Origin: a virus
Reading direction: 5' to 3' (one strand)
IMG/VR virus record: IMGVR_UViG_3300045988_094674
Location: 59,788 to 123,787 of that record
DNA: 64,000 nucleotides
In this document: piece by piece, positions 12,495-51,199 of the stretch
How positions within the stretch are numbered: the stretch's first letter is position 1
Layout of the letters: every line of letters begins with the position of its first letter
Translations under genes and position numbers: made by a program
Notes under the pieces: model-generated
Told to the model about the DNA's origin: nothing
Database searches by the model: none
What the model saw: only the letters and a program-made list of their open reading frames with translations

Positions 12495-12995
12495 TTATCC
12501 ATTCTTTGGGTTGTTTTGACCGTCGATTAAATAGTTCTCAAGGGCAGCTTTTGCTTCCTTCATTGGCTCGATAGCATTTCCATCAATACCATGACTGAGC
12601 AGGGCAAGAAGAGCCTTCATAGTTACATTGCTTCCGTGTTCACTTTTATTGATGCGTTGCTCCGCCTCGACAATTTTGTGTTCGTGAACTTCAATCGTAA
12701 TGGCATTTTCTTTCTGACGCTCTTCTAACTGAACAATCTTTGACTGAAAAAGGTCAAATCGATCTTTGTCAGCGGCAAGTTTCTTATCAATCGAATCGAA
12801 CTTCTTGTCATGTTCTTCCAAATGTTCGTTCTGTTTGTTGTCTGGCTCCTTGATTTTACTGACAAATTTCATGATGACGGCGATAGCAGCCGAGATAGCA
12901 GTAATACCGCCACAGATGCTTAAAATCATGGTCTACAGTTGATGCATGGTAAAGGTGTATACGTGTGGTGCGGCATTCAATAGGACTGTACTCAT
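12495..12995 (-). CDS. membrane-anchored coiled-coil protein of the lysis cassette, with one in-frame TAG
   Basis: GGAGGTG plus ATG at 12995. TAG at 12933-12935 is in frame with track ORF 12495-12929, whose own ATG has no SD. TM helix ILSICGGITAISAAIAVIM followed by a charged coiled coil. Confidence 0.5.
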
Positions 12996-13132
12996 ACTGT
13001 TGCGTCACCTCCGTTCTTAGCCTTCAGTGTCTCGTTGATGGCGGTAAGCTGGTTTGCAGCCGCATTCGGTGCCACGACAATCTCTTTCCCGGTCTCATCG
13101 AGGATAAAGGGCTTTAGTATTTCTTGTGCCAT
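12992..13132 (-). CDS. small hypothetical protein (46 aa)
   Basis: GGAGGAATGT precedes the ATG at 13132. Its TGA forms an ATGA overlap with the start at 12995. Confidence 0.35.
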   Translation of the reverse strand: MAQEILKPFILDETGKEIVVAPNAAANQLTAINETLKAKNGGDATV

Positions 13133-13267
13133 ACATTCCTCCTTTTTATTGACAAAATTCTATCAACGTGATATGGTTAAGTTAAACATTCAATGTCGAG
13201 CGTGCATTACCTCATTTATACGGGAAGAGTCTCTGTGCCCACAGCGGGTAATAGAGGCTCTTCCCTT

Positions 13268-13708
13268 TTATTTACATATGGTTCTCCAGTGATAGTGCGG
13301 TTTATCCTCGTGGAATAACAAGTGTCGCAGCCAATCGTCAACATAGATGCACAACAACGAAAGAAAGAACCATAGCACTGTAAACGGTAGACAGATTTGA
13401 CCTAGCAAATTGAAGGGTAGGGAAGAGTAGTCCCAGATATGTAACCCCAGCATCAGATTCAGCGGGATGCCCACGACAAGTTCCATTGCAGTCACAAATA
13501 ACGCACCGACAAGACCCTGTTCCCACATCGGCATCTCCCATGGAATATAATTGTTCAGACCGCCGATCACAACAAAGCAGATGCCACCCACTACAGCCAT
13601 AGTCCAGTGTGAATAACCACGCCACAATATTTCAATGCAATAATAAAGCGCCCCTCCTATCAAAAAGAGAAGGATGCACTTTAGATATTCTTTAACTTTA
13701 CTCTTCAT
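13268..13708 (-). CDS. multi-pass membrane protein
   Basis: Track ORF of 146 aa with about four hydrophobic helices (YCIEILWRGYSHWTM...). Possibly lysis or membrane associated. Confidence 0.5.
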   Translation of the reverse strand: MKSKVKEYLKCILLFLIGGALYYCIEILWRGYSHWTMAVVGGICFVVIGGLNNYIPWEMPMWEQGLVGALFVTAMELVVGIPLNLMLGLHIWDYSSLPFNLLGQICLPFTVLWFFLSLLCIYVDDWLRHLLFHEDKPHYHWRTICK

Positions 13709-14238
13709 GATCTGACTACCTGAGCAACGCTGTCGTACTCGATTTTAATAGCATTAAGCTGTTCTAAAGTGTTACATTCCTTAATGCTCAATTCCAACTC
13801 CTGTTGATGAGAAACAAATGGTTTAACATATACACCAATTTCTAGAGCTAACGCAGCTAAATTTTCATACGTCTACTCTACACATTCGGCACCAGTGCTA
13901 TTCCATGTTAGCTTAAACGGCTGTGCGGTGGCTACAGAAATTTGATATAGAGCAAGATTTGAAGTCAACAAGGATTGCTTCTCACTTGTAACAGAATAAT
14001 ATTTACCATCTGTCCATTGTAATGGATGATTTTCAAGATATGTAGCTAGAATAGTTTTACTTTCTGAAACCTTTTTTTCTTTCTGAATCTTTAATGTATT
14101 TTCAGGATTGTTTTCAGTGAGTTCTGTGTATTCTTCTTTTGTTAATTTCCCTGCTAAATAAAAAGTATCTAATTTTGCAGTAAAATTATTTGTTTTTCCG
14201 GAAGCGATTACTTTTTTACATAGTTCATAAATGCTCAT
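13705..14238 (-). CDS. hypothetical protein with one in-frame TAG
   Basis: Track ORF 13873-14238 ends in TAG at 13873-13875. The frame stays open for 55 more codons to a TGA at 13705-13707, which forms an ATGA overlap with the next start. Confidence 0.5.
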
Positions 14239-14265
14239 AATAAATTACACTCTCCTCCTTTCTCT

Positions 14266-14448
14266 TTATTTAGCAGTTTCATCATCTGTCACGCCCAGCT
14301 CAAGAAGAGTCAGACGGTAGTCCTGATCAAGGTTCAAAGCGTCCGCGTCCGCCAGAGCGGATTTCAGTGCTACTACCATTTCTGGCAACCTTTCTCTTAT
14401 TTCCTTCTCCTGCCGGGTGGCCAGATTATCCTTTTTCCACTGAATCAT
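14266..14448 (-). CDS. hypothetical protein
   Basis: Track ORF with AGGAGG upstream. Confidence 0.45.
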   Translation of the reverse strand: MIQWKKDNLATRQEKEIRERLPEMVVALKSALADADALNLDQDYRLTLLELGVTDDETAK

Positions 14449-14462
14449 AGTGACTGTCCTCC

Positions 14463-15722
14463 TTACTGGAATGCGCCGGAGACGGCTTTGATGTAGCCGC
14501 CGGTGCCGGATGCACTGCGGCTGGCGCTGATGCGGAAATTGAATGCTGAACCGTTGGCAACAGTCTTGTTGGTGAACACGATGTTCATGCCTTTCTTCAC
14601 CTCAGTGGTAGCATCCTGCCAGGCTGGGGACGGGTCGTTGGCGTTGTTCGTGACCTCCGCCTTAAACACAGCATCATCGGGAATGCTACCCGTCACCTGA
14701 AGGACGGCAACGGTAATGTCACCATCCACTGCCAGCGGGGTGGTCAGGGTCACACTTGCGGCGTGGACGGCCTTGGTGAAGGTTGCGGACGCGCTGGTGG
14801 TTCCCTTGCCGTCGCTCACCTCAACCGTCATGGTGTGGTTGCCGTTCAGGATGCGCTGGAATCCGGCAGCATCGGCGACCTGCTCAAAGGTCAGGACCGT
14901 GCCGCTGGCAACACCGGCGCGAGTTTTAGTGGTCTTGCCGTCCAGCTTTTCGGTGACAGTCAGCGTGTCGCCGTCGGCATCGGTAACGGTATACTTCCAT
15001 GCAAAGACCGTGTTCTTCTCGCCAAGAGCTGCGCCGTCCGTGCTGACGGTAGGTGCAGTGTTGACACCGACCGTGCCGTCGTCAGAGACCGCGAGTGAAG
15101 AGGGCAGTACAAAAGCGGGGCGAACACCATAGGAGTAGCCGTACCAGTAGTTGCCGGTCTAGCCATTGATGTCAACGCCAAAGATGTTGGTGCCACTGCT
15201 GACGTCCGGAGAGCGCAGCCACCAAATGGCAGCGCTGCCGCCGTTGTAGGCGACACGCTTGTTGATGCCGTCAGAGCTGTTGTCGAAGTACGCCAGCCGA
15301 ACACCCTCCTCGGGGAAATAGCTGTCGTCTCTGGTCGTAAAGCCAACCTCATAACCAGACAGCAGGAATACTTTCGTGCTCATGCCATTGGAGCCGGTGG
15401 CAAGGCTTCCGCCGCTGCCAACGCCGTTCTGGTACGGAATCTTGACCTATTTGATGACGTTGCGAATGTCCGTATCAATCAGGTTGTAGAATGTTCCGTT
15501 CAGGTATGTATCGATGCTGGAACCCTTGTAGGAGTTATTGTTGCTGAACACAGACGTTGTGTAGATGTCCTTCATCAGCAGCTACGTCCCGGCACAACTC
15601 GAATCATAGGTGCTGGTATTCGGATTACCCTGCTGCACAACAATAAAATCTTTGGACGCGCCGTTGACCTTGATTTTAACGGTGCTGCCAACAGCCTTCA
15701 TGCCGAGATTTACATTTGCCAT
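14463..15722 (-). CDS. GC-rich tail fibre/receptor-binding candidate (WWLRSP...GVRPAFVL type domain) with three in-frame TAGs
   Basis: AGGAGGTG plus ATG at 15722. A single frame runs to TAA at 14463, interrupted only by TAG at 15582, 15447 and 15159. Motifs IWWLRSP and YGVRPAFVL (DUF6273-like). C-terminal Ig-like repeats. Confidence 0.6.
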
Positions 15723-15740
15723 AAAAATTCACCTCCTTAC

Positions 15741-18874: not shown

Positions 18875-18891
18875 AATACCACTCCTTTCAT

Positions 18892-21837
18892 TTATGATTT
18901 TGGCTCAACATATTTATTTGCCGATGCGCTCAGATATGTGATGTACGGGTAGTACGGATAATAGCGGCTCATGGTAACATTCATAACGCCCTCACCCAGA
19001 TTGGTATCTATCTTTTTTGTAATCCATTCTACGGGGGTATCATTCTTTAGATAGCGAGCTGCATATTTTATTTTCTGATTAACGTCCAACCACGGAATTA
19101 AATGCATACGAAGCGTTATAGTGTCGGTTAGTCTACAGTTTTTCCAAAGCTGATATTCTGTTGCGAGCATCAAATCCTCGTCATTCGTGTAAGCATCAAA
19201 CTCTCCACCGGAACATACGAGATTTCTGCGTCCAATTTTATCAATCGTAAAGCGACTATTATAAAGGTTCGTCAAATCCTTCGGGTCTGTAACAACGATA
19301 TACTTCAAATTGTCACAGCCTTCAATTTCTTTATCTTTTTCAATCTCCGCATCTGTAGGCATCTTATCTACAAATTTCGCCATAGCATGAGACTGAGATT
19401 GACCAAGAAAATAGATCCGGCTCTCTTTTATGAGGGCAGGATCTTCAATCTTTTCTGTATGTTTTCCTTCTTCAGTATTTGTTACCTTGTAATAATGCGT
19501 TTCGTACATTTTTGTTTCTTCGTTGTACTCTTCTTTTACGATATACTGAATCTTTGGATTTATCTCAGTCTTGTCATATTCACCAGTTGTAGAATTGAAC
19601 ACCCATTTATAAGCACCTTCGTCTGCCTGGTCAAGATATTTTTCTCCATACTGTACAACATAGTAACGTCCTTTTTTCATAACATTTGTATCAATAGGAA
19701 TATCATTACCATTTTGATCTGTTGATGCCTTATATACCATCATTGGACCATATACTTGTAACGCGTGATCTTTATATTGCGCTCCATCTTTGTCAACAGC
19801 GGTTGTGTAAACATCATTTACAATATACATATGAGTATTAAGCGGGATATTTACTGGACAGATGAAAGATAAGCGTGACCCGTCCGATATAATTGCGTTT
19901 TTTAGTTTTAAAACTATAATAGAGTTTCCAATGTTATTGATATCAAGCTGAATTTCGAAATCATCGTATTTGTCTTTTGGAATCCCTAATATTTCGGCAA
20001 CAGAGTCTTTCCATTTTGATGCTGACATGCCATTATCTCGTGCCTTATAAAACACTCTGCCAGTACCTTCTGGGTCGTCTTCCTCTAGTTTATCCTTGCA
20101 GAAATAATCGCTGGTGATAGTAGAACCCCATGCCTCAACACAATTATGTACCTGCGTATAATCAACCGTCGAATTTTCTGTGATAACAAGACTTTTGAAA
20201 ATATCAGGGCTAATTACAACAGGGTCATCATACCCGTTTGGAATCTCTTTGCATACAAAAGTATCATCATCAAAGTACATCTCAAACGGGTAATATAGGT
20301 CACGCAACTCTGTTAGAATCGTCCAAACAGTAGTTCCAGTATTATACTCCATGTCGTGTGGAATGCGCCGCTTCCAATAATCAATCACGCATTTTGTCAT
20401 ACCGGAAAGCTCGAAAGTATTCTTGATAACATCTCGCACATAATACGGTTTTGATTTGTCCTCTGTGTAAATCTTATCTCCATTCGCATCCTTGCTCTCA
20501 GTAAGTTTATACATTGGAATTCGTGTCGAGTACCCAGTCAATGTTCCACCCAGTGTTCCATCAAGCAGGGATACTAAATCTACACACGACAAGTCAAGCT
20601 TGTTAGTCATTGCATCATACGAGATACCATTCGACTGAATCGCGTAAACCCCGACTGAGAACCAATGTACGCCATCCTCATCGATATAATTTGCACAATT
20701 CCTGATAACTTTATCCTTCGCAACTGTTTGGATAATAAACTGCTGAATCTGTCCCAGACCATCTTTTAGTTCCCATATGTGGCCCTGAATATCATGCATA
20801 GAATATCCGACAAATGGACTCGTCTTTTTATACTGGTTCTTTAATTCTGGCTCGCTCCAACCGGCAATTGCCGAAACATCAACTGGCTCTAAGACTCTAT
20901 TCGCAATCGTTTCTCCTTCAATGGCAGCGATCATATTTTTTAGATAGATAGACTTTCCATCTATTGTACATGTGAGACCTTTTGCGTCATAAGATAAAAC
21001 AGCGTCGTTAAATTCTAGGTCTTTCGTTGTCCATGATTTTAAATCAAACACAAAACCAGCAACAGGCTTAACATCTTCAGTTTTCTAAGTCAAATCTGAT
21101 AAGTTGTTTGAATTGTAGACTTTATTGTAAGCAAGCTTATAAACCTCAGAAATATAATCTATAACACCGTTACGACTAACTGGAATTAACTCGTCTCCAT
21201 CCTCTAAAAACAGCGTATATGCAATTCTCCGAGTTACTGTGACGCCAACCGCCTCATTATCAGCAGTCCAAGCATCGTCGCAACCGCAAGCGGTAGAATA
21301 GTCACCAATTTCAAATGGGCCATTTTCAGTTGAGAAATCCTTATAGAGATTTAAATTGCGTGCAGTCCAAATGATTCGTGGTCGATTTATATTGTTAATA
21401 TTTGAATATAGGTCATGCTTTGTTGCTTTGATTTTTGCAATATAAGTCAGCAACTCTTTGTTCTTTAAATCGTATTCTATATTATTTTTTACAATAGAAT
21501 CAATCGAATCGCCGTCAATGTCTCCATCATATGTTAAAATACTGACATCTTTCTCTGAAGTTGGGGCTTTCATACCGATATAGATACGAACTTTTTTATC
21601 AATCTAATCTTCCGCTTCAAACTGAGAGATAGAAAAACCCATCATTGGGAAAATAGACAAACTGTATGTACGGCGAATATCAGAATCTGCATCGTTAGAA
21701 CCGGAACCATCCAAAGTCAGGCCCTCAATGCTATCAATGATTTGAGACTCTTTGTTCAATAATTCTACTCGTGTAAACAGACTCTTGGAATGACTGGTAA
21801 GCAAAGCCAAGTCTTCTTGTGTTGGCAAATAAGTCAT
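18892..21837 (-). CDS. tail-associated (Tal-like) baseplate protein with two in-frame TAGs
   Basis: Track ORFs 21604-21837, 21085-21573 and 18892-21051 share one frame and are separated only by TAG at 21604 and 21085. The one SD (GGAGGTGG) is at 21837. Joined size is 981 aa, in the position downstream of the Dit candidate. Confidence 0.6.
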
Positions 21838-32500: not shown

Positions 32501-33021
32501 AATAAAACACCTCCGTATATTTTGGATACGCGATTGTAATATTATTATAGCCAGAATATCGTATGTAGTCAACGAATATTTTGTTTTCTCCTATTTTGTA
32601 TCGCGCCAGAGAGTAGCGCGTCTCCTCATTTCCACCTACTTCTTTAAGTCGTCTGGTTACGTCTGAGGTGGACTTCTGAACTTTCGCCCAGAACTGACTA
32701 TCCTTCCAGTGGTTGCTCACTGACCCTTTTTAGTCGATGAACCTTCCACCTTCCTACATTATATAATAGGGGAGTGGATCGGCTGCTGACCGCCCATTGT
32801 AAACGCTACTTAGCACTCGATTATTACCATATTTTGGCAATACGATAAAACCGAGCTTTTATCTCAGCATATAGCATCCATATCCTTGTTTCTATCTTTC
32901 GATTCCTACATTATATAAATATAACAATAGGCGATATGGCTCTTAGGGTTTCCCAGCACTCTAGGGGCTATTTTATTTTTACATGGTGCCGCATCCTATA
33001 TTTTTATACGCAACAAATATA

Positions 33022-35451
33022 AGAGGGCATATTAACTTTACCCGCACCATTTTTGAGCTTTCCGCTCATCTGCATTACAGACAACACGCCGGAAATGGCG
33101 GCTGTCAGAGTTGGTAATGCGCCAGCAAATTTTACAGCACTATCTGCACCGTCAACAAAAACAGTAGCAAGGCTTATAAAGAACTTCGGGATATCAGACT
33201 TCATCAAGTCCGTACTAAACTTCTGGAATGCAGAATCAAGCTGATTAAGCTTCGCCTGCAAGGAGTCCATGTACGTCTGGTTCTCACGCATTGCGCTGCC
33301 ACTAGAATTGAGTGCCTGCTTCATAGCGTCTTCAGCAACACTAAAATTATTCAGCAGGGCAGATGTACTCTGACCTCCTCTCTTTCCAGAGATCAGCTCA
33401 GTAATATTTGCCTGTGTTGTGTCAGACAGATCTTTCCAAACCTCAGAAAGTTCCTTCATAATCTGATAGGTTGATTTGAAGGTATTATTATCCTTCATAA
33501 TATCAACACCAGCAAGTTGCTTCAACTCAGATCGAAGTTCGGACACAGAATCTGCCATCCCATCTGTTGCGATACCGGCATTTTCTGCATCTGTTTTTGA
33601 AGCACGAAGGTACATACTCAAAGTTTTTAGGTAAGTGCCACTCGTATCTGCGTCCTGAAGTACACCGTTTACAGCAGACGCCAAACTAAGCGTCTCCTGA
33701 TATGTATTTCCGGCGGCAGACATCGCAGCGGAACTTTTCTGCATGATAATTCCAAGGTCGTTCATACTGACTGGTTCAGTATTAGCGATTTGGTTCATGC
33801 AGTCCAGAAGACGCTCTGCATCATCAGCAACCAACCCAAAACCTTGCATTGCAGAAATCAGGTAAGAAGAAGCAGTTGTTGCATTATCTATCTGGTCTCC
33901 AACATTAGCCATAAGAGCAGACACACGAGCAAGCTCTTCAGAGTCTTTGTCCGTATATCCAAGTCGCTTCTAATCGGCAGTGCTACTTACAAGATCAGAA
34001 ATATTAGCACCAAGATTACGAGCGTTTGTTGCAGTTCTATCGAGATATTCGTTCATCTCGTCGTCAGTCATTTTACTGACTTTTTTAAGCTCTGTTACAG
34101 CCGTATCAAGTTCCAGAACATTATTATAAACCTCTCGCAGACCTTGTTTGACCATAGCCACGCCAGCCATAGCAATAGCTGTCTGGAAGTGCTCCTTAAA
34201 CAGACGAGACAGTTTTTGACCAAGAGTTTCTGTAGTGGCCCCACATCTGCTGGCCTCAACCTCAAGATTTGATAGTCTTGCACTAAGATCAGTAACATTG
34301 CCTTCACAGCCAGCAGCAGAAGCTTTTATTCCGTTTAAACTATCAATTAGCCAAGAATATTTACTTTTATTTGCAATAGAGTCTTCTAACTTCGTTGCAC
34401 GTTCATAAACACTCTTAAACTTCGTCATATCAACATTGGCTTGATTTATATCTCTAAAATCAAATCCAAGTTCTTTTAAATGTTGACTTGTAGAATCAAT
34501 AGTTGTATCAAGAGTCTTGCATTTTTTATCAAAGTCTTGAATTGCTTTCCCTGGTGTAGTGTTCTCAATAGAAGCAAGCTGATCTCGTAACTCTTTTAAC
34601 TTTCCAGAAGTTTTTCCAGTTCCATCTTCTCCATATAAATATTTTTTGATATTATCATTTTTATAGTTGGAGTTATTCTTAGAATAGTTTTCAAGAGACT
34701 GAATCTTTTTTTGATATTTTTCATACTCGGATTCTTGAGATATGAGAGTCTTTTTTAAATCATCTGCAATTTCTTGATTTTGTTTTTTTAGTTCTTTTGC
34801 AGCCGAATCAGCACCTTTTGCAGTATTCCTGTCAGCATTGAATTTTCCGGTTTTTTCGATATCCTCAAGCTTTAACTTCTGAGTTTCCGTAATTACATCT
34901 TTTGTTTTTGTCTTGAGTTTATCCATCTCATCGTTGATTGCGCTCAATCTAGTCTGTACCGCTTTCAACTCAGATGATTTGTTTCCATTAGCAATTAACA
35001 ATGCTTCATCCGCTTTTAACTTTGCTTGACGATTTGCAAGGCTGAAAAGGCGAGAAATATCACTTTTTGAAGTATCTTGCGGTTTTGCAGAACCAGACTT
35101 TCCGGTATCAACCTTAACTGTCTGCTTTGCTGCAGATTGCATAGCTTTTTTAAGCTGTGCGGTTACTTTACTCTGGTCAACCTTAACATCAAGTGTAACC
35201 TTTGGAGTTCTTAATTTTCCACTCTTGACCACCTTGTCAAGTGCGTCATTTATATTGCGGATTGTATCGTTTTGATTCACTCCGAAAGCAATTTTTACTG
35301 GTTTTTCTTTATAATACTCTTTAACAGAATTAAATTGCTTGTCTAACTCTGCTTTATTTGCGTCAATAACAACCTTAACCTTGATAGCTGTTACAGAGGA
35401 AGTATCAGCACTACTTGCGGTGTTTGTATTATCCGCCATACCGTTGGTCAC
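33022..35451 (-). CDS. tail tape measure protein, exon 1 (proposed), with one in-frame TAG
   Basis: Track ORFs 33970-35451 and 33004-33924 share a frame and are joined by TAG at 33970-33972. The region ...ALMANVGDQIDNATTASSYLISAMQGFGL... resembles the TP901-type TMP core. Start is GTG at 35451 or ATG at 35439. Confidence 0.65.
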
Positions 35452-36137: not shown

Positions 36138-37127
36138 TCAAATCTCAAACCGATCCTTTGCAGACTGAATCTTTGTCGTATCCTTTTTGATGTAATACTT
36201 GTTGGTCACATCCGTGCCAGCATGGTTGAGCAGGGAAGAGACATCTTCCAGACTCATACCCGCATTCTTCAGCAGAGTAGCACCACTATGCCGAAAATCG
36301 TGCGGATGCAGCGTAGGCTCATCAATCATCTCACCAATCTTCTTACACCAATCACCGGCAGTGCTTGAAGTAATCGGCATCCATGCGTCATTGATTTTCG
36401 CACCAACAAACACATAGCCGCCATCCTCAATATCATGCTCAGTACGATATTCCTTCAGCTCTTTTAAAAGCTCAGAAACCTCCTTGCTGAACATCAAATC
36501 AACGATTTTGCCTTCCTTTTCCAGAACGTCATGTACCATGCGGTTCTCATAATCGATAGACTTCCAGAGTGTATTTCGCACAGCGTTAACACGAGCCATC
36601 GTGGACAGCGAGAATAGAGCATACAGCCGCAACGTCATCGCATTATCCTTCATGTGAATAGTGGTCGCAGATTCAACCAACACATTCAGTTTTTCTCGCA
36701 TCAGTTTAACCTCATCCGGCGTAAGGTATGTCTGCTTCACGACAGCCACGTCCTTAGTCGGTCGGTCAATGAACTCCATCGGATTCTCTTTGATGATTTT
36801 CTTCTTGCGAAGATACCGATACAGTGCAGAAATCGTGCTCATACGTCGCTTCATACGAGCAGAGTTATTTCCATGCTTCTTACAGTAGAACAGAAATTCC
36901 TCAATATCCTCTTCTTCAAGTTCTGTCACAGGGGCATTTCCCTGATTGTCCAGAACATAAATCATCCACTGCTTGAAATCCGATTCATAATTGTAAACAG
37001 TAGACGGGCTGAGATCACGGATGCCCATATCAGTCTCATATCTATCCCAGTATTTTAAAGACACTGGGTTTACGTTCTTGAACTTCTCAGCATCCCATAA
37101 CTTCAGCGGTTTACTTCTTGTAGCCAT
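36138..37127 (-). CDS. XerC/D-like tyrosine recombinase (second recombinase in the window)
   Basis: N-terminal SAM-like domain (...STISALYRYLRKKKIIKENP). Catalytic HDFRHSGATLL and LLNHAGTDVTNKYYIK. Confidence 0.8.
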   Translation of the reverse strand: MATRSKPLKLWDAEKFKNVNPVSLKYWDRYETDMGIRDLSPSTVYNYESDFKQWMIYVLDNQGNAPVTELEEEDIEEFLFYCKKHGNNSARMKRRMSTISALYRYLRKKKIIKENPMEFIDRPTKDVAVVKQTYLTPDEVKLMREKLNVLVESATTIHMKDNAMTLRLYALFSLSTMARVNAVRNTLWKSIDYENRMVHDVLEKEGKIVDLMFSKEVSELLKELKEYRTEHDIEDGGYVFVGAKINDAWMPITSSTAGDWCKKIGEMIDEPTLHPHDFRHSGATLLKNAGMSLEDVSSLLNHAGTDVTNKYYIKKDTTKIQSAKDRFEI

Positions 37128-37161
37128 ATTAAAATTCCCTCCAACCCACCTCTAAAAGTGT

Positions 37162-40145: not shown

Positions 40146-40624
40146 CAACCACACCCCACAAGGTCATCCAGATCCTGAGTCTTGAACGTCATGATTCTCA
40201 CGCGATGGTGTAAATCCATGTTGTCCTCGATGTTGGATGTGATTTTAAGTTGCTTGATTCCAAAAATTGTACTGCCGTGTAATTCTTTCTCTACAAGACC
40301 ACTCAGATAGTCAACTCGTGTTGCACCGCCATGACCTTTCATCTTCATCAACGCCTGATTCACAATAACCCACACAGTAAGCGTAAAGTTCTCATACCAA
40401 TCGTTGACATTGCTGCGGTCAGTCATGTTTACCTTAAAACAAATATAGCTGTGTGCTGCCTCAATCGTGTCAGGAATATGGAAGTACGGGAAGATGTATG
40501 TATAAATCGCCTCGTCAGGCTCTTCAATATCGTCATTACCCATTGCTTCAACAAGTCCGTCCGTATTAACCAACTTTAAAGCCAATTTGTTTTTGTAGTC
40601 AGTAATCAATTCACTCGTTGTCAC
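40145..40624 (-). CDS. hypothetical head-tail joining protein
   Basis: Track ORF. Overlaps neighbouring genes on both sides. Confidence 0.5.
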   Translation of the reverse strand: MTTSELITDYKNKLALKLVNTDGLVEAMGNDDIEEPDEAIYTYIFPYFHIPDTIEAAHSYICFKVNMTDRSNVNDWYENFTLTVWVIVNQALMKMKGHGGATRVDYLSGLVEKELHGSTIFGIKQLKITSNIEDNMDLHHRVRIMTFKTQDLDDLVGCG

Positions 40625-41646
40625 AGCAAACTCACCACCTTACATTCGATAGATGTGTTTGCCGTATCATCTGCATTTGTCAGAGAAATCTTAACAGTTG
40701 CGCCGTCCATGATACTATTATTCAAAATACGAATTTTGAAAACACCATCTGTAGCAACCTGTGTTTCAACAAAGCTTTTGAATTCATCAAGACAAATAAA
40801 ACTCCACTTTGCAACTTCCGCAACCTCTTCACCCGTAATGCTTGTAAACACCGGAGTGAATTTCTTCCAAGAGCCACCAACACGAACTTCCGGCTTACCT
40901 GCATACTTAATAGTAGCTGTTACCTGAGAATCCGCATCTGGCTTATCACTCTTATTGGGCTCAAAATAATCACAAATCATCTTCTCAGCATTATCAGTCT
41001 TACTGTTATACTGATCCTGCCGGATGTTCAACACAAGGAACCCCTGTGTCTTACCATGCAGTTCGTAACGCTCTGTACTTTGATCAACAGAAGTCGTAAC
41101 ATACGTTTTCGGCTCGCCATTGATAATTTCCAACATGAAGCGCTTATCAAGGTCGATCAGTGCAGTCTCGTCATCAAAAGGCATCTGCACCTTATACTCA
41201 CGTTGACTCAATGAAGTCATAACAAGTTCCTTATTATTTGCGTAATAAGGCTTACTCAGCGTTGCCCAGCGAGAGACTATCTCACCAGTAATCGGATTTT
41301 GCCATTGAATCTGGCGGTTACACAGCTCCATCTTACCGCGAAGAAAAATTTCATCGTTTGGTTCAATCTCAGTTACCAGCCATTTGCAGTTGTAACAGTC
41401 AACAATATCACCAAGATTCAAAGAATCGCCAGGATAAGCCTAGATTTTCTTTTCTTTAGCAATACTATTACTGCGACTAACAACCAGCTTCTGAGGTAAG
41501 CCATTCACAAGAGTATTATCCTCATAATCAACACTATCCTTGAAGTGTGTAGCGAAGTCACGTTTTGCAAAAGCAATTTTGACATCCTTTTTGTTAGACA
41601 TTTTTGCGGCACCGCCAACAGCTCGTGCCCTTGTATAAAAGTCCAT
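40621..41646 (-). CDS. hypothetical head-tail protein with one in-frame TAG
   Basis: Track ORFs 41440-41646 and 40621-41421 share a frame. Only TAG at 41440-41442 and six sense codons lie between them. The downstream part starts at TTG with no SD. Confidence 0.55.
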
Positions 41647-42159: not shown

Positions 42160-42174
42160 ACTATCCCTCCAATC

Positions 42175-42876: not shown

Positions 42877-42890
42877 AATTTGTCTCCTTT

Positions 42891-42921: not shown

Positions 42922-42944
42922 CCAGATTTGCCTTTGGTAAAAAA

Positions 42945-43118
42945 TTACTGCAGAACAATCTTAGCAACACGCTCAATATGATCAATGCTGTAGCCGAAGG
43001 TAAAGTCCTTGACCATCAGATGAATCTTTTCGTTGTTGTTATCGTGGTCCTCGTAAGTATGAGTCTCACCCTTCATGTCAAGTCTTCCGATCTTGCCCGC
43101 AATACCATAAATACGTTT
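42945..43118 (-). CDS. major capsid protein, exon 2 (proposed)
   Basis: Open frame KRIYGIAGKIGRLDMKGETHTYEDHDNNNEKIHLMVKDFTFGYSIDHIERVAKIVLQ* with no start or SD of its own. Followed by a terminator. Confidence 0.6.
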   Translation of the reverse strand, partial: KRIYGIAGKIGRLDMKGETHTYEDHDNNNEKIHLMVKDFTFGYSIDHIERVAKIVLQ

Positions 43119-44703
43119 CCAAAATTTTTAAGAAAAATGTTTATCTAAAATATTTTCTACATTATCAAAATCTGTGTAGGGAATTCTGATAAGTTTGATT
43201 CCATTACGATTACAATATTCTGTTTTTAAAGAATCTTTCTTTTGCTGACTTTTATATGTACTAATAGAGTCGGATTCGGTTACACTCTTGCTAAACCTAA
43301 CAGGCATAAAATGTTGTTGCCCGTCGTATTCAATGCAAGTATTTTTTGATGGTATATAGAAATCAAAAGGAAGCTGCCGTTCATTTTTACAATCTTTAAA
43401 ACTGTATTCTCGTATGTAATCAATGCCATAACTATCGAGATAATTGCATACTTTTTCTTCACCATGAGAAGAACAACACTTTGGACATCCATGCCCGCCA
43501 AGAACTGAATTGACAGCTGTTGACCATTTGTAACCACATTTCTTACATTTAAAATTTGCATGAGATAATATATTTTTATATCCGCTCAAATACTCAACAC
43601 TTGGAGAAACCGTTCTTAGTCGTTCTATCATTTCAGACTCTAAAATATGTGCTCTCCCAGCACATTTTGGACAACCAGAATTTTTATTATTAAGTATCGT
43701 ATCAGGAATTGCGGTCCAATGGTAACCGCAAACATCACATGCAAAATCCACTTTCACAGCAACACGGACATATTTTGAAAGAACATGAATAGTAGGAAAT
43801 CGTTCACGCATTTCTTTTAAGAATTCATCTTCCGTTCGTCTGTTTGCAATCCGTCGATAACATTCTGGACACCCATGTCCATCAAGCAATGTATGAGATA
43901 TGCCATTCCACTCATACCCATCAAGTTTACAACGACAATGCACTCTCGCATTGTTTGTTGTGTATTCAGATAACAACTCAATATTAGGATTTACTTCAAA
44001 CAGCTCCGTGGAAAATTGTATTGGCGACTTTCTTTTTTCTGCTCCACGCTTAGAGGCAACACATGCTTGACACCCACGATTATCAAGCAACATTCTTGCC
44101 TGTACTTCACGTACATCCCCGCATACTTTACATTTCCTGGTAATCTTTTTTCGAAGACCATTATATTCGGATAAAATTTCAAAATTTGGGTTTACATCAA
44201 ACACTTCTTTTTTGAAGTCTTCTGTCGTTCTCATTGGTGTCATCCATGCCACCTCCTTTCTTGCAAAATAAAAGCCAGATACTCTACACAGCATCTGGTC
44301 AAATCAAAATATTAGATAAACATTATATCGGACGCTACTCCGCTCTTGTTGCATCTAGCAACCTCGTACTCTCATACGAGTGAAGACTATATCTTCACCC
44401 AGTAAAACTGGGGCACACCACTTCGGATGCCAAACACTTGCATCCTAACCGCTCCCACGCGGATAGTCGTTGGACCTTCTCCTTTTCGGAGCTTGGCTGC
44501 TGATTGCCCATTATTTCAGCGTTTAGGATTTAACCTTGCGCCATCTACAATTTTCTTTCTACTTTCATAACCACCCATCTAGGCATATTTCATCCTTCTG
44601 TTTTGGTAATTGTAGTTTTAGGGTTTTCCAGCAATTCAATGTGTATTTGTTATCGTGACTTACATCACGACTGGACTATATTACGTAAATTTACATAAAT
44701 TTA
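43119..44703 (-). mobile_element. group I intron in the major capsid gene (1585 nt, with HEG)
   Basis: Minus-strand core elements: P AATTGCTGGAAAACCC (44621-44636), Q AATCAGCAGCC (44495-44505), R GGTCCAACGACTATCC (44461-44476), S AAGATATAGTC (44385-44395). P/Q and R/S are complementary. The exon ends in U and the intron ends in G. Confidence 0.7.
43128..44243 (-). CDS. intron-encoded homing endonuclease candidate: four zinc ribbons plus a Vsr/PD-(D/E)XK-like nuclease domain
   Basis: AAGGAGGTG plus ATG at 44243. Four C-x2-C...GC-x2-C repeats (for example KCKKCGYKWSTAVNSVLGGHGCPKCC). C-terminal LPFDFYIPSKNTCIEYDGQQH...GIKLIRIPY. Confidence 0.65.
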   Translation of the reverse strand: MTPMRTTEDFKKEVFDVNPNFEILSEYNGLRKKITRKCKVCGDVREVQARMLLDNRGCQACVASKRGAEKRKSPIQFSTELFEVNPNIELLSEYTTNNARVHCRCKLDGYEWNGISHTLLDGHGCPECYRRIANRRTEDEFLKEMRERFPTIHVLSKYVRVAVKVDFACDVCGYHWTAIPDTILNNKNSGCPKCAGRAHILESEMIERLRTVSPSVEYLSGYKNILSHANFKCKKCGYKWSTAVNSVLGGHGCPKCCSSHGEEKVCNYLDSYGIDYIREYSFKDCKNERQLPFDFYIPSKNTCIEYDGQQHFMPVRFSKSVTESDSISTYKSQQKKDSLKTEYCNRNGIKLIRIPYTDFDNVENILDKHFS

Positions 44704-45525
44704 ATCCGGGATCAGCAGGGAACCATCACCCAGCTTCTTAGCAGAGCTAATACCAGTGATAGCAACACCATCGTAAGTCTTGACCAGGCCATAACGGTTG
44801 AACTCATCCTTAGCTGCATCAGACAGATACTCAGCGTAACCGGTCATACGACGCATCTTAGCACAATACTTCATCAGGCTGACAGTGAAGGGGTTACCAC
44901 CATCGGCGTACTCATTCAGATACAGAGCCAGAGCGTCCATGTCCTGCATAGTGGGCTCCTTACCCTGTACATCGATCTTCTGCTCGCCACCAGTGATAGC
45001 GTCATCAACCATGCTGAAGATGTCATAGAACATCTGGTTCTTCAGAGCCTCAGTCATAAAGGTGGTCAGAGTTGCCACACTCTTCCAAGCATTACGTCTT
45101 ACTTCCACAAAGCTAAGATCAGCCTCAATCTGCTTATTACGCCAGACGGGCTTAATGGTCTCGTAGTGCAGGTAAGACTTCGGCACGTTGCCACCCTTAG
45201 CTGCATCATAAGCCTTCAGAGTATTTTTAACAGTACGACCTGCCTCGTAGTCATCAAACTCACCAACATTACCACGCTCAAACATGGAGTCCAGAAGCTC
45301 GTCAGGTGCGCCATACAGCTCATCAGTCACGGTGCGATTAACAAACTGAGCAATTTCCTTATTGGGATCGCCCTTGTCAATCAGCTCCTCAACATGAGCG
45401 CCAACAACCTCTGCAATTTCCTTGTCCTCGGCATCCATAGCGCGATTGTACTGAGTCTTCTCAGCAACTTCATAAACACGACCAGGCTGCTTCATCAGCT
45501 CGGCCACTTCAATATTCAGTGCCAT
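44704..45525 (-). CDS. major capsid protein, exon 1 (proposed)
   Basis: Track ORF 44701-45525 (274 aa) downstream of the scaffold/protease gene, with G/C-richer codon usage. The TAA at 44701 is read as intronic. Confidence 0.7.
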
Positions 45526-45621
45526 AATTCATTTCCTTTCTCTTCGCGCAAAATAAAAGAGCTACCGCCAAAGACGATAGCCTTAAATTTCACGTATCAT
45601 ATTCAAGATTTTTTCTCTCAA

Positions 45622-46098
45622 TCAAGCAACAGTCTTTGCCTCGGGCAGCACACTAATCATAATTAGCTTATGGCCGTTGTCATCCATCACACCAGCAAAC
45701 TCAAAACGAGAAGTACCAGTAGTAGCAACCTGCCACTTGCCATCGGTGTTGACCTCCAGCAGCTTGCCGATATTAGCATCCTGTGCATCAGCAGCCTTAT
45801 ACTGGTCGGTGCCATACAGCTCACCAGCATACAGAGGAACACGCTTCACCAGCACACCTGCCTTAATCTCGGTGACCATCTCATCATAGTCATCAAAATT
45901 AGTCTGGCTTGCATAGATGCCCTCCGGGATAAACTCATGGGCAACCATCTCGATGCCCTCAGCGGTAGCTGCATCAGGGAACTTAACCTGACCAGCCTTG
46001 TGGTCAACCTGAACACCCATACCGGTGACCATAGCGACCTTTGCGGCATAATTAGCGGGAATATTCTTCGCACCGTTCACCATCAGTTCACGAATCAT
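45622..46098 (-). CDS. hypothetical head protein (between scaffold and capsid genes)
   Basis: Track ORF of 158 aa. Its position suggests a decoration or scaffold-related role. Confidence 0.45.
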   Translation of the reverse strand: MIRELMVNGAKNIPANYAAKVAMVTGMGVQVDHKAGQVKFPDAATAEGIEMVAHEFIPEGIYASQTNFDDYDEMVTEIKAGVLVKRVPLYAGELYGTDQYKAADAQDANIGKLLEVNTDGKWQVATTGTSRFEFAGVMDDNGHKLIMISVLPEAKTVA

Positions 46099-46125
46099 AA
46101 TATTTTTCCTTTCTCTTAAATGTTA

Positions 46126-47691: not shown

Positions 47692-47702
47692 CGTTCATCA
47701 CC

Positions 47703-49331
47703 TCACTTACTATCTTCATTTCTCTGCTGGTCATAAATTTGTTTTTCAGTTTCCTCGCCCTTTGGACGACCTGTCTTTTTATCGCTGTCACCACCACCGC
47801 CGGTGTTACCGGTCGATGTATAAGAGGTCTGGCGAGCCACAAACACATCGTCATAACCTTCCTCGGTTTCAGCCTGACGCTTACGAAGTTCGTCTTCAGC
47901 ATGAAGTCCCATATACTCATAAGCAGTCTTGTAAGAACAGTTCAAAGTGGTGAACAGGAACTGAGCAATCGCCTTCTTCATCTCCATACCCATCATTTCA
48001 GTAGTAGAGACCTTCACATCAGGGCAGTACATCGGATCTACACCTGCATCTTCAAGGCGAATACGATACCATCGCTTTAATACATCTTCAATTTGTTCAG
48101 CAATCTTACCAATATTTTTCATCAACTGGTCAAGAGACACCTTTGCAGTTGAAACAGTCTGCTGACCGTCGGTATTTAAGAAACTGATCCCCAAAGCAGC
48201 CATCTCTCGGTTGCGATACTGTTTAACAGTCTCGATATTTGTCATCTCAACTTTTGGCTCAACATACTTGATATCCTTTACATAAGGAGCGGTCGTCACA
48301 AGCACGGTATTTTGTTTCCATGCACGCAGCAGGTTATCGTGCGCCGTCACTTGTTCAGAGAAGCCCTTTTTATCTTTGTTTGGTCCCATCAACTCAGGGT
48401 CAAGCTGTTGCCAGATGATTTTCTTTGCCTTTGCCTTAGCATTTACACGGTCTGAAGTATCAAAAGTTTCAAGCATCAATGCCGGACGTAATGCGCGGAA
48501 CAGGGGAGAGACACCATATTTCTGCCCCATGTTGCCAATACGAATCACACCACAATGGTCAACATCCAATTTTGCATATGTATCACCATTCTTAAATGCC
48601 TGATACACCTCATCTGGATAGTTGTTTTGAATCTCGGTCTCCTGATTTTCAAAGAATAGCGCTTTATTCTTCTTGTCCTTCAGCATAGATTTGCTCAAAG
48701 CGGATTTCAGCTTAGACATATTGATAAGCACAACAGGCTGTCCATTTGATAAGTAATCGCTTATCTCAGCAATACCAAGAGGGTAATAGTCTACAATATA
48801 GTTCTCATCCTTCTGACGCAGATATGTAATATAAGTGCCCTCTGCGTAAGTCATCGGAATGGCGGCACGTAGCAGACTTCGCACATTGATTTGTGCGTTG
48901 AAGTCATCAATCACTTCACGGGCGTAATTTACCTGTTTTGTCTTATTACGCTGTTCAGGGAACTGAGCGAAACTGCATTTGAACTCAGTATTAACATTCG
49001 CCTCAATCGCATCATAAGTAATGCCAATCAGGTCATCCTTGTTGATGTAATTACGGATGATTCCATTGACCGTCTGCACATTCGTCAGACTTGACTGTAG
49101 CCCTTGTGCAAGCTCATCAATTCGGTCAACGGTCAGTGTCTCAGAGGAGGCTGAAATTTTCAGATATGTACTATACTGCTTATTTTCAGGGTCATAAGAC
49201 GCAACTGCATTTCGGATGACGTTATTCATCCTCTCTTCTGAAAGTTCATTCAAAGAGGTAATAACTACAGTACCGTCATCTGTCTGTGAAGCAGTCACGA
49301 CATCAAAATCTTCCTTTTTCTTTCTTGCCAC
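47703..49331 (-). CDS. portal protein
   Basis: 542 aa with a GTG start after GGAGGTG. Lies immediately downstream of TerL. Size and position are typical of a portal. Acidic/basic C-terminal tail. Confidence 0.65.
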   Translation of the reverse strand: MARKKKEDFDVVTASQTDDGTVVITSLNELSEERMNNVIRNAVASYDPENKQYSTYLKISASSETLTVDRIDELAQGLQSSLTNVQTVNGIIRNYINKDDLIGITYDAIEANVNTEFKCSFAQFPEQRNKTKQVNYAREVIDDFNAQINVRSLLRAAIPMTYAEGTYITYLRQKDENYIVDYYPLGIAEISDYLSNGQPVVLINMSKLKSALSKSMLKDKKNKALFFENQETEIQNNYPDEVYQAFKNGDTYAKLDVDHCGVIRIGNMGQKYGVSPLFRALRPALMLETFDTSDRVNAKAKAKKIIWQQLDPELMGPNKDKKGFSEQVTAHDNLLRAWKQNTVLVTTAPYVKDIKYVEPKVEMTNIETVKQYRNREMAALGISFLNTDGQQTVSTAKVSLDQLMKNIGKIAEQIEDVLKRWYRIRLEDAGVDPMYCPDVKVSTTEMMGMEMKKAIAQFLFTTLNCSYKTAYEYMGLHAEDELRKRQAETEEGYDDVFVARQTSYTSTGNTGGGGDSDKKTGRPKGEETEKQIYDQQRNEDSK

Positions 49332-49348
49332 ATTTTCACCTCCTCTGC

Positions 49349-51199
49349 TTAGAAGTCAATGTTAGAAATACAAATCGGCGGAGCAGTCATTGTCTCCACC
49401 GCAGACTGGCGCACTTTATCCTTACGACGTAATTCGTATAGACGATGAGCAAGCAAAATTGCAACATAGAACCTATCATCGTGGATTTTGTTGGCAACGT
49501 CGGGTGCCAAAGCATATGTTACGGTCGTATTTTCAGAGTTTGTCGTTTTCTGAATACTTGTGATCTCGTTCTTCATCAAGTCGATGTTAACCCACGCAGT
49601 CTGTTCCTCTAAGGAAAGTTCATGCGTCTTCAAAATTTCTTGACCAGTTGATTTATCCACACCGTCTACTACCTGAACATAATCTCCGCCGTTGTATTCA
49701 AGAGGGAAATGAATGACACCAAGATTCATCAGCTCAATAAATTCCTCAACCATTGCAGTGCGGAATTTACGAGGACTAATTAGACGTAGCTTATCAACAG
49801 CATCTGGGTAACGGGTATCATATCCTTCATATAATTCATGATTTGCGTCGATAAAACCACGATGTTCTGCGCCTGTTTTATCAGTCCAATTGTTAAGTAA
49901 ACCGTCCGCATATGTGGAAGTACCACCGCCGCCAGCGCCTTGGTCAATCATCAATCTATCAATGTACTCGTAATCAGGATTTTGACCATTGTAATGTAGA
50001 ATCAACTCATGTAACTGCTCAAGCTGACGATTAGAATCGAGCTTGAATTTTTTCTCGTTCGCAAGATCAACCATGTTTACGCAATTTATAATGTCGCCAC
50101 ACATGCCGTTTTCTGGATCGTTATAAATACGCATAACGCCAACAATAGAGTTATCCATTGTGCGGGCAGGATCAAACGCAAGAATATACTGATAGTTCCT
50201 ATCCCAATAAAGCTGTGGGATATACTTTCGCTCATTGCGACGAACCGTACCCCATTTGATGATCTGGTTTACGCCACCATCACGGCTTGGTCGATTATAA
50301 TATTCACGCAACGCCTTCATTTTATTTGACTTTAGAGCTGCATCTACCTTGTCTTGTGTCAATAGCGCTTTGTATGGCTTACCCTTCATATAAACTTTGA
50401 TTGCAACGTCACAAATCATATCACAAACAAAATAATCTCGATCTCCTGCAATCATGCGCTTTGCAAATTGTTTGTAGTATTTATAAAAAAGCTTGTCCAT
50501 CGTGTCCTGACTTGAAGCATAAACTAGCTGAGTAGGAACCTGACGAGGCTGCATTTCAGGATTATAGTCACTGTCAGTGTCAGTGACGAAATCCGTATTC
50601 TGTGTTGCAAAAGCTTCACAGACAACAATCAGTTCGTCGGAGCAGAATGCCGCCTCATCAAAGAAAATAAGACTGGCTCGCTTGCCACGCACACCATCTG
50701 GGTTAGAGTTCAAAGTGTTAATAGAACTACCGTTATAAAACTCAACAACATACCCGGCAGGATTATGACTAAAACCACTTTTGTTGGTTGCAGACTTTTT
50801 CGTTTCTTTCTCTGCAATATCTTGCAGACTACGGATAGACGCAGCCGTCTTACCAACACGAGTAACAATTTCTTCGATCTTATTAAATGTCTCTTTTGCT
50901 TGATCACCAACATTACTTACAATATAAATAGACTGGTTCTCATATAATATTGCCTTTAGGATAATGAAAACAGAACCTACAAAAGACTTGCCAAAGTTTC
51001 GACTACACGCCTAAAGAACATGACTTGCATTCCAGCTTTGTTCCAGCATATATGCCTGAGCGTCAAATAGTTGGATACCCAATAAATCTCTGGCCGCAAT
51101 AACAGGATTGCGCCGATAGAATGCAATCGTTGCCGCATCACACTCATAAATCTTACGTTTTGCGGCTGTAATAATAGGCGCTCTTTGTTTCATCCTCAT
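49349..51199 (-). CDS. terL: terminase large subunit with one in-frame TAG
   Basis: Track ORFs 51011-51199 and 49349-50713 share a frame. After TAG at 51011-51013 the frame reads ACSRNFGKSF (Walker A), then LIFFDEAAF (Walker B) and a nuclease half. ATGA overlap with the upstream gene. Confidence 0.8.

Follow-up and report, generated by a model that had tools for sequence, protein, structure and literature searches.

TAG is an in-frame sense codon in the late structural and lysis genes of a temperate phage of gut Clostridia, and TAG and TGG exchange at conserved tryptophan sites between this phage and its relatives. The phage encodes a conserved tRNA with the anticodon CUA that co-occurs with the TAG codons. 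Judging from the sequences, it is likely that this amber suppressor derives from a phage tRNA-Trp and provides a sparse TAG = Trp coding in the late genes. With somewhat less assurance, we also favor the broader reading in which the SPbeta-like temperate phages of Clostridia from the human gut include a widespread clade that has arrived at a TAG = Trp variant of the code through a CCA-to-CUA change in its tRNA-Trp; these phages would stand at the earliest stage of stop-codon capture, with sister phages that keep CCA and lack TAG, and would be mistranslated with Gln by current pipelines.

The window, i.e., the whole 64,000-nucleotide stretch of DNA analyzed here (G+C content 41%), is about half of a ~130-kb SPbeta-like temperate phage. 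A YonO-type RNA polymerase, a Yon/Yom virion set and the ~130 kb size place it among the SPbeta-like siphoviruses; the related IMG/VR contigs are 125-150 kb long, and the Yon/Yom Pfam families present in the collinear relatives are YonK, YonJ, YonG, YonD, YonB, YomW and YomU. The gene for the YonO-like single-subunit RNA polymerase (RdRP fold; 58506..61289, minus strand; a 927-aa protein with a PF05183 match) forms the upstream end of the characterized minus-strand gene train, and a tyrosine integrase (7988..9214, plus strand, Phage_integrase match) lies inside a plus-strand module at 119-11002. These features support an earlier note on this DNA, which had described a siphovirus-like genome with an integration module. 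No nucleotide similarity of the window to GenBank phages was found in the collection searched.

TAG is read through in seven late genes

The earlier note reported ten in-frame TAGs in seven late genes, and at all ten coordinates the plus strand reads CTA and the minus strand TAG. Every site lies inside a continuous minus-strand open reading frame (ORF) delimited by TAA or TGA. Across 70 gene models there are 10 in-frame TAGs, no in-frame TAA and no in-frame TGA, and the claim that TAG never serves as a terminator also stands (40 TAA, 30 TGA and 0 TAG), a result with P ~1e-5 if the use of TAG as a stop simply followed its frequency as a trinucleotide. The minus-strand ORFs in coding frames that do end in TAG are only the N-terminal pieces of the seven genes, and among the plus-strand ORFs of at least 50 aa in 1..11000 none is TAG-ended. 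The features of a stop-codon-recoded phage in the sense of Borges et al. (10.1101/2021.08.26.457843) are present: a single stop type occurs in frame together with a cognate suppressor tRNA, and TAG, without terminator use, is confined to the block from the large terminase (TerL) to the lysis genes and absent from both the integrase module and the YonO block. The recoding is sparse, involving 10 of ~12,000 codons, 7 of the 34 late genes and ~5% of the Trp positions in the TerL-to-lysis block, and the 22 genes of the plus-strand module have 45 TGG codons with neither in-frame TAGs nor TAG terminators.

Homologue alignments run through all ten TAG sites, and Pfam domains span those in the tape measure and fibre genes; because homologues align through every site, TAG must be translated. 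The downstream pieces had been said to have no credible start, which does not hold strictly, since several carry an in-frame ATG, GTG or TTG 6-15 codons past the TAG; it is the homology across the TAG that is the real evidence for sense reading. Four further TAGs (at 37152, 42892, 32591 and 61338) were rejected as sense codons, being upstream of the true starts.

That there is no recoding at all, and that the TAGs reflect either nonsense mutation in a prophage undergoing decay or G-to-A errors of sequencing or assembly, is extremely improbable. TGG to TAG is a single transition and the element is an integrated one (an integrase is present), but 70 genes have ten TAGs and not one TAA, TGA or frameshift, and dozens of contigs that were assembled independently have identical TAGs, with the frames downstream of them intact. 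Pseudogenisation had already been denied in the earlier note, and we concur: only TAG interrupts, TAG terminators are absent and a conserved suppressor tRNA accompanies the TAGs.

The residue at the TAG sites

Homologues carry Trp at 8/10 of the window TAG sites, Gln at 1/10 and Ser at 1/10. The seven genes, all on the minus strand, are described below together with the state of each site in homologues or among 80 related IMG/VR phages, which we refer to as the relatives.

In TerL (49349..51199, 616 codons, Terminase_6N and TerL_ATPase matches), the TAG at 51011-51013 is codon 63, directly before Walker A. There are >100 full-length homologues of this protein; the position is W in 24/24 full-length sequences inspected, and here 48 loci of the relatives have TGG and 31 have TAG. 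A virion-module protein of 341 codons (40621..41646), called a head-tail gene in the earlier note, has its TAG at 41440-41442 (codon 69), where W occurs in 60 loci of the relatives and TAG in 8-22; gene calls in two relatives (L239 and L241) split it at the same TAG into 68 + 236 aa. The tape measure protein (TMP; 33004..35451, 815 codons) has its TAG at 33970-33972, i.e., codon 494, which is W in 74 alignments of relatives and falls within the PhageMin_Tail match at aa 476-684. The Tal-like tail protein (18892..21837, 981 codons, C-terminal DUF5048) has two, at 21604-21606 (codon 78, W in 77 loci) and at 21085-21087 (codon 251), the latter within an insert missing from more distant homologues and W in the sole informative homologue, P0242 (71% identity).

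Three TAGs lie in a G+C-rich gene for a fibre or receptor-binding protein with DUF6273 and Ig-like domains (14463..15722, 419 codons), at 15582-15584 (codon 47), 15447-15449 (codon 92) and 15159-15161 (codon 188). The DUF6273 match (aa 45-208) spans all three, and a relative with 94% identity keeps all three. The 113 homologues with 80-86% identity have W at codon 47 and Q at codon 92; at codon 188, 110/113 have S, and A, D and L occur in one each. A 177-codon protein (13705..14238) has its TAG at 13873-13875 (codon 122), which is W in relative L154, with the alignment continuing to codon 171, and TAG in L243 and L244; its stop forms an ATGA overlap with the next start at 13705-13708, as had been described. 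The lysis-cassette membrane protein (12495..12995, 166 codons), with its TAG at 12933-12935 (codon 21, W in L154), is encoded upstream of a holin (12106-12426) and an M15 endolysin (11446-12093), both Pfam matches.

Trp makes up 1.1% of residues, and the probability that at least 8/10 TAGs come from TGG is 2e-8 if they arise randomly from single-nucleotide neighbors. The family repeats the pattern. About 16 further W positions of the window are in-frame TAGs in relatives, and the recurrent TAG sites of the relatives in a high-identity alignment context are all W (82/92 occurrences). At these recurrent sites the only states are TGG and TAG, as expected of TAG = Trp, and no TAA or TGA occurs in the high-identity alignment context of the relatives. 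Among the singleton TAGs of the relatives a few align to Q, E, Y or M.

The earlier note had implied TAG-to-Gln (code 15), the reading used for crAss-like and Lak phages and by public pipelines and the sole TAG reassignment reported for phages. The alignments make it very unlikely here. One window site does align to Gln and the database entries P0121-P0127 show Q at TAG sites, but these Qs are table-15 translations of TAG rather than CAG or CAA codons; 8/10 window sites and most recurrent sites of the relatives are invariant Trp, including the residue beside the TerL Walker A, and the dominance of synonymous CAG-to-TAG changes that code 15 predicts is absent.

An amber-suppressor tRNA allelic with tRNA-Trp

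ARAGORN detects a 75-nt tRNA(CUA), an amber suppressor, at 52913..52987 on the minus strand (default label 'Pyl'); the earlier note had not reported it. It has an encoded CCA end, the acceptor pairs G1.U72, C2-G71 and G3-C70, the discriminator G73 and the anticodon loop C-U-CUA-A-A, scores 40.9 bits against the Rfam tRNA model (gathering score 29) and shows compensatory changes at 13/21 cloverleaf pairs across family variants. On the same strand follow tRNAs Lys-UUU (52993-53069), Ser-UGA (53137-53228), Tyr-GUA (53295-53381) and Thr-UGU (53613-53685). This five-tRNA cluster heads the TerL-to-lysis block, with a YonJ-like gene on one side and the gene before TerL on the other, and all in-frame TAGs are downstream of tRNA(CUA). 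No gene for a tryptophanyl-tRNA synthetase (TrpRS) or a release factor was seen within the window.

The same cluster occurs ~1.5-2.5 kb upstream of TerL in 77/80 relatives. The syntenic slot holds a CUA tRNA in 54 loci (at least 7 sequence variants) and a tRNA-Trp(CCA) in 6 by acceptor-motif scan or 7 by ARAGORN, the extra one being the L233 copy without a CCA end; the two never occur together in one relative. The alleles are identical in acceptor stem, G73, CCA end and loop C-U-NNN-A-A, and their other stems diverge with covariation. The window tRNA(CUA) is 65% identical to the CCA tRNA and 61% to the window tRNA-Lys; at such low identity its Trp ancestry rests on synteny, the acceptor stem and intermediate variants. 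Descent from a tRNA-Gln, and with it TAG-to-Gln, is further opposed by these findings, the suppressor being allelic and acceptor-identical with the phage tRNA-Trp(CCA), with the CU-NNN-AA loop of the CCA allele; none of the clusters showed a tRNA related to tRNA-Gln.

TAG at W sites follows the CUA allele: it is present in 49/54 CUA loci as compared with 3/26 loci without CUA and 0/6 with CCA (Fisher P = 3e-12 for CUA/TAG co-occurrence, uncorrected for phylogeny). Phages >95% identical in protein carry either allele, with from 0 to several TAG codons. The TAGs are also polar with respect to the cluster. The eight genes from the YonO-like RNA polymerase to the tRNA cluster have 34 TGG codons and no TAG, and the W positions that are TAG somewhere in the family number 24/147 downstream of the cluster versus 0/34 upstream (P = 0.009).

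C35 is a Trp identity element, and the CUA mutant should therefore be a poorer TrpRS substrate. The C2-G71 pair of tRNA(CUA) is unlike the G2-C71 determinant of B. subtilis tRNA-Trp, an observation that counts against Trp charging. On the other side, the main determinant of Trp identity in bacteria is G73, and the combination of G1-U72 and G73 is documented as an identity set of tRNA-Trp (PMC9976931).

Identity elements also bear on dual or ambiguous decoding, in which one fraction of tRNA(CUA) would carry Trp and another Gln (or Lys), giving a protein mixture with sites that tolerate whichever residue is functional. We regard this as unlikely, if less so than TAG-to-Gln. Recognition by GlnRS involves U35, G73, a weak 1-72 pair, G3-C70 and G10, and the amber suppressor from E. 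coli tRNA-Trp (su7) is charged with Gln (PMC9976931). Fibre codon 92 lies at an invariant Gln (113 homologues) and is stably TAG in the 94%-identical relative, and three singleton TAGs of the relatives are at Q positions. Against this, C2-G71 differs from the G2-C71 of tRNA-Gln, and TAG is over-represented at Trp sites, with 8 W versus 1 Q despite CAG having twice the frequency of TGG (P = 9e-4 even when only transitions are counted); this excess argues that Trp is the residue that works.

Proposed mechanism and implications

In the TAG = Trp mechanism that we propose, tRNA(CUA) would have arisen when the anticodon of a phage tRNA-Trp changed at position 35 from CCA to CUA, while the acceptor stem of tRNA-Trp and its discriminator G73 were retained. 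Because these are kept, we infer charging with Trp, either by the tryptophanyl-tRNA synthetase of the host or by an unseen enzyme of the phage. After synthesis of the late transcript, the tRNA would compete with release factor 1 and read UAG as Trp, and TGG-to-TAG transitions downstream of the tRNA would then be synonymous and could accumulate; in a phage without TAG terminators, its own stops would not be read through. If the suppressor were not expressed, TerL, tape measure, tail and lysis-cassette proteins would likely be incomplete, and this dependence may give the TAGs a regulatory role in the lysogen, where late functions would be locked at the level of translation.

In the literature searched, no phage or other virus and no bacterium was described with TAG = Trp; the reported phage stop recodings are TAG = Gln and TGA = Trp only, plus TGA = Gly matching the host. 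If true, TAG = Trp here would be a new natural code variant, founded by a single anticodon mutation of a phage tRNA-Trp, and the CCA/CUA clade would offer a natural series for how reassignment starts. Gene callers choosing among tables 11, 4 and 15 would fragment such genes or put Gln at invariant Trp positions, and the latter outcome, including Gln beside the TerL Walker A, is confirmed in public protein entries. For genetic work in Firmicutes, tRNA(CUA) is in addition a candidate for a natural amber suppressor that inserts Trp.

Comparison with known systems

The SPbeta/phi3T group and the phiCD211-like Clostridioides phages share the virion/late module with the window phage and are likewise temperate and ~130 kb in size, with terminases 25-28% identical to that of the window. 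For SPbeta-like phages, amber recoding is not known to have been reported. Recoding in a temperate phage does have a precedent, since Borges et al. (10.1101/2021.08.26.457843) described recoded prophages with TAG-free integrases, among them prophages of Oscillospiraceae, and proposed recoding as a lock on late/lytic functions. As in the window, their phages (Lak, crAss-like, Garnet, Topaz, Agate and Jade) have in-frame stops concentrated in structural and lysis genes, a phage-encoded suppressor tRNA, a recoded codon depleted as terminator and integrases without recoded codons; their hosts are predicted to use the standard code. They observed only TAG to Gln and TGA to Trp, whereas in the window TAG aligns to Trp, the tRNA appears to be a tRNA-Trp derivative and the recoding is very sparse; in its clade, moreover, phages that are nearly identical differ in their TAGs, and a single tRNA locus has CCA and CUA alleles.

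Phages of the code 4 type (TGA to Trp, e.g., Jade with TrpRS and RF1) resemble the window in that the stop is one transition from TGG and the suppressor is tRNA-Trp-like, but here the codon is UAG rather than UGA and the anticodon change is at 35, a Trp identity position, rather than 34. The plastids of Balanophoraceae have a TAG = Trp code, which we take to be NCBI table 32. There TAG has passed to Trp (PMC10268348), as we propose here, and TAG terminators are absent, as in the window; however, the plastid genome is reduced and extremely AT-rich and has lost most of its TGG to replacement, whereas in the 41% G+C phage TAG would be a minority Trp codon that depends on a phage tRNA in a standard-code cell. 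Finally, E. coli su7 (supU) is, like the window tRNA, an amber suppressor with a CUA anticodon on a tRNA-Trp, but su7 is a laboratory mutant, whereas the phage tRNA(CUA) is a natural, conserved gene, and the codon usage pattern that accompanies it points to Trp.

TAG codons within the late genes

The ten in-frame TAG codons that an earlier note had reported in seven late genes are confirmed. Read directly, the plus strand carries CTA, and hence the minus strand TAG, at every site, and each TAG falls within one unbroken minus-strand open reading frame (ORF) when only TAA and TGA are taken as stops in delimiting the TAG-spanning ORFs. TAG is codon 63 of the TerL gene (51199..49349), codon 69 of the gene for a 341-codon virion protein (41646..40621) and codon 494 of the tape measure gene (35451..33004). 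It appears twice in the gene of a Tal-like tail protein (21837..18892), at codons 78 and 251, and three times in that of a DUF6273/Ig fibre (15722..14463), at codons 47, 92 and 188. The two remaining sites are codon 122 of a 177-codon gene (14238..13705) and codon 21 of the gene for a membrane protein of the lysis cassette (12995..12495). All seven genes are on the minus strand. Across 70 gene models, the in-frame stops comprise 10 TAG, 0 TAA and 0 TGA, and the terminators 40 TAA, 30 TGA and 0 TAG; the probability of finding no TAG terminator is ~1e-5, assuming TAG usage at its trinucleotide frequency. The only coding-frame ORFs of at least 50 aa that end in TAG are the N-terminal fragments of the seven interrupted genes, and in the tape measure and the fibre Pfam domains extend across the TAGs. 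It is nearly certain that TAG is translated as a sense codon. A rough comparison of ORF totals with TAG, TGA or TAA in turn read as sense was not informative, since removing any stop lengthens shadow ORFs. Pseudogenisation and assembly error were each considered as the source of the TAGs and rejected.

The residue at the TAG sites

TAG and TGG swap at conserved Trp positions, as seen when the window proteins were compared with 235 related loci by local tblastn and the relatives' codons were read directly. TerL has more than 100 full-length homologues (66-96% identity), and its TAG position, directly before Walker A, is Trp in all 24 full-length sequences inspected (...HVL-W-ACSRNFGKSF). The codon is TGG in 77 alignments at codon 78 of the Tal-like protein, in 74 at codon 494 of the tape measure and in 60 at codon 69 of the 341-aa protein, where a further 8-22 have TAG. 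At codon 122 of the 177-aa protein, as at codon 21 of the lysis protein, one relative has TGG, in alignments that run beyond the site. Codon 251 of the Tal-like protein lies within an insert missing from distant homologues, the sole informative homologue (71% identity) having W. Among 113 fibre homologues (80-86% identity), codon 47 is W, codon 92 is Q and codon 188 is S in 110; these homologues replace a misleading comparison with 25%-identical paralogues, whose residues there are F, K/Q and E. The seven closest fibre entries have Q at all three sites over underlying TAG and were left out of the tally, since these Qs are translations under table 15 (TAG read as Gln) and not evidence. Public fibre entries P0121-P0127 have Gln at codons 47, 92 and 188, where the DNA of two related phage loci (L243, 3001-4260; L244, 1002-2261) is TAG. 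Automated table-15 calls place Gln at a conserved Trp position of the fibre.

The tally over the ten TAG sites is thus W 8, Q 1 and S 1. The probability that at least eight of ten arose from TGG is 2e-8 if the TAGs came at random from single-nucleotide neighbour codons and 9e-4 if only the transition neighbours TGG and CAG are allowed. Reciprocally, relatives have in-frame TAG at 16 further positions where the window has Trp, for example TerL codon 56, tape measure codon 367, Tal-like codons 157, 327 and 898, and four positions in a 1745-aa protein. In high-identity contexts, every recurrent TAG site of relatives is a Trp position (82 of 92 occurrences), a few TAGs, mostly singletons, fall at Q, E, Y or M, and neither TAA nor TGA occurs in frame. 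The recoding proposed in the earlier note stands, and the Gln meaning that it implied does not, with W at eight of ten sites; it had also overlooked the suppressor tRNA.

The suppressor tRNA and its CCA allele

This tRNA, with anticodon CUA, lies at 52913-52987 (minus strand), clustered with those for Lys, Ser, Tyr and Thr (ARAGORN), and Rfam confirms all five. On the coding strand the cluster precedes TerL by ~1.7 kb, and all in-frame TAGs are downstream of it. In 80 TerL-centred loci, the syntenic slot holds a CUA tRNA in 54, in at least seven sequence variants (ARAGORN alone gave too low a count, and an acceptor-stem motif search added two variants), and tRNA-Trp(CCA) in 6 (acceptor-motif scan) or 7 (ARAGORN). 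The two never share the slot in any of the 80, and the CUA tRNA is allelic with a tRNA-Trp. All variants have in common the acceptor stem GCGCCYR/YGGRCGU (G1.U72, C2-G71, G3-C70), G73, a CCA end encoded in the gene, and the loop C-U-NNN-A-A. The remaining stems (D, anticodon and T) differ between variants with compensatory changes while the acceptor stem is frozen, and 13 of 21 pairs of the family covary. Identity to the CCA tRNA is 65-78% for the CUA variants, a range that also holds when these are compared with one another, and it exceeds their identity to the adjoining Lys and Thr tRNAs.

The main Trp determinants in bacteria are G73, the anticodon and the first pair, and G1-U72 combined with G73 is a documented set for tRNA-Trp (PMC9976931). 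Because a tRNA-Trp-derived amber suppressor gets glutaminylated in E. coli (PMC9976931), we retain ambiguous decoding as a rival. Judged from the alignments and the tRNA family, TAG is probably read mainly as Trp.

The D-loop of the window CUA tRNA (AAUGCCUA) is missing the GG, and position 56 in the T-loop (UUGGAUU) is G, not C, which suggests that the tertiary pair G19-C56 has been swapped to C19-G56. By sequence reading, the same swap is present in one variant of the family (v1), and another (v2) and the CCA allele are canonical. In two related loci (L187, 8232-8305; L240, 8232-8306) the syntenic tRNA has the loop TTTAGAA instead of CTCTAAA, giving anticodon UAG and a 'Leu' call. TTTAGAA comes very close to the reverse complement of CTCTAAA and sits in a palindromic anticodon stem (CAGGT...ACCTG), as if the hairpin loop of the suppressor had been inverted; neither locus has TAG at Trp sites.

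Co-occurrence, polarity and a possible mechanism

As an in-frame sense codon, TAG occurs only in the block that lies downstream of the conserved phage tRNA(CUA). Within 10 kb either side of TerL, at least one Trp site is TAG in 49/54 loci with the CUA tRNA vs 3/26 without it (Fisher P = 3e-12, not corrected for phylogeny), and in 0/6 loci with the CCA tRNA. Downstream of the cluster, 24 of 147 Trp positions are TAG in some family member, against 0 of 34 upstream, from YonO to the YonJ-like gene (P = 0.009), and the integrase module contains no in-frame TAG. Among ~1,300 stops of orthologous late genes in relatives (L156-L235) with or without the suppressor, none is TAG; in those without the CUA tRNA, tRNA-Trp(CCA) carriers included, the count is 0 among ~380. 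Since relatives without the CUA tRNA also lack TAG stops, the depletion looks ancestral to the clade, preceding or outlasting the suppressor, and ancestral stop depletion has been proposed for recoded lineages (Borges et al., 10.1101/2021.08.26.457843).

We infer that tryptophanyl-tRNA synthetase (TrpRS) charges the CUA tRNA with Trp, in which case a TGG-to-TAG change would be synonymous whenever the tRNA is being expressed. If a lysogen does not transcribe its late genes, TerL, the tape measure, tail and lysis proteins would be cut short at the TAGs, an added translational lock as proposed for other recoded prophages (Borges et al.). Alternatively, the TAGs may represent neutral drift allowed by the suppressor. 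TAG is used sparsely, in 7 of 34 genes and, across the TerL-to-lysis block, at ~5% of Trp positions, which is compatible with both the lock and drift.

The phage and its mobile genes

The window holds roughly half the genome of a temperate, SPbeta-like phage of gut Clostridia, given its gene content, its 125-150 kb relatives and the Eubacteriales and Anaerovorax prophages. The minus-strand train has a 927-aa YonO-like RNA polymerase (PF05183) near its upstream end, then ClpP, PhoH, a YonJ-like phosphoesterase, the five-tRNA cluster, TerL and virion genes of SPbeta Yon/Yom families (assigned in collinear relatives), and closes with a holin and an M15 endolysin. A module on the plus strand (119-11002) carries genes for a radical-SAM protein, dUTPase, GNAT, FolD and a tyrosine integrase. 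A second tyrosine recombinase (36138-37127, minus strand, 329 aa; Phage_integrase and SAM-like N-domain), additional to the integrase at 7988-9214 (plus strand), sits within the virion module with tail genes on one side and the tape measure on the other. Pfam scans of 47 window proteins found no release factor or Trp or Gln synthetase domains.

Well over 100 related contigs, each 125-150 kb, are present in IMG/VR, and a megablast with a 19.5 kb query found no nucleotide similarity to GenBank phages. Three distant prophage relatives occur in genome contigs (a Eubacteriales MAG, Anaerovorax and a probably mis-binned contig); all three lack the CUA tRNA, so the host is placed only to Clostridia/Eubacteriales.

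A YonB-like gene (42948-45525, minus strand), the probable major capsid gene, is interrupted by a group I intron. Exon 1 (45525..44704) and exon 2 (43118..42948) correspond to aa 1-274 and 275-331 of an intact 331-aa orthologue, and the 1.6 kb between them contains an Intron_gpI match (44363-44704; Rfam 77.9 bits) and a minus-strand ORF of 388 aa (44294..43128) with treble-clef zinc-finger, CapR and DUF723 domains. This ORF looks like a homing endonuclease, as only some relatives have it. A 338-aa ORF (55045-56061, minus strand) shares its treble-clef, CapR and DUF723 domains with the intron ORF, and relatives have an RRXRR/HNH ORF or nothing in its place; L240 has a Cas12f/TnpB-like ORF close to its tRNA cluster. 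The YonO-to-TerL region is, on this gene content, an apparent hotspot for mobile nuclease genes.

Comparison with known recoded genomes

The window TerL is 25-28% identical to those of SPbeta/phi3T and phiCD211-like phages, in alignments that begin ahead of the TAG. Recoded phages and prophages have been described before, including Oscillospiraceae ones with TAG-free integrases, and for phages whose code departs from that of the host the authors state that they see TAG to Gln and TGA to Trp only (Borges et al., 10.1101/2021.08.26.457843); subsequent annotation work handles TAG recoding as table 15. In the literature collection searched, phrase and keyword queries gave nothing relevant on TAG/UAG-to-Trp in phages. 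The element is a stop-codon-recoded phage with all the defining features, and it is not a code 15 phage, since neither the residues aligned at its TAGs nor its tRNA fit that code. TAG to Trp is known from Balanophoraceae plastids (PMC10268348), and its probable use here, through a tRNA-Trp-derived suppressor, is filed as a new variant of stop-codon recoding.
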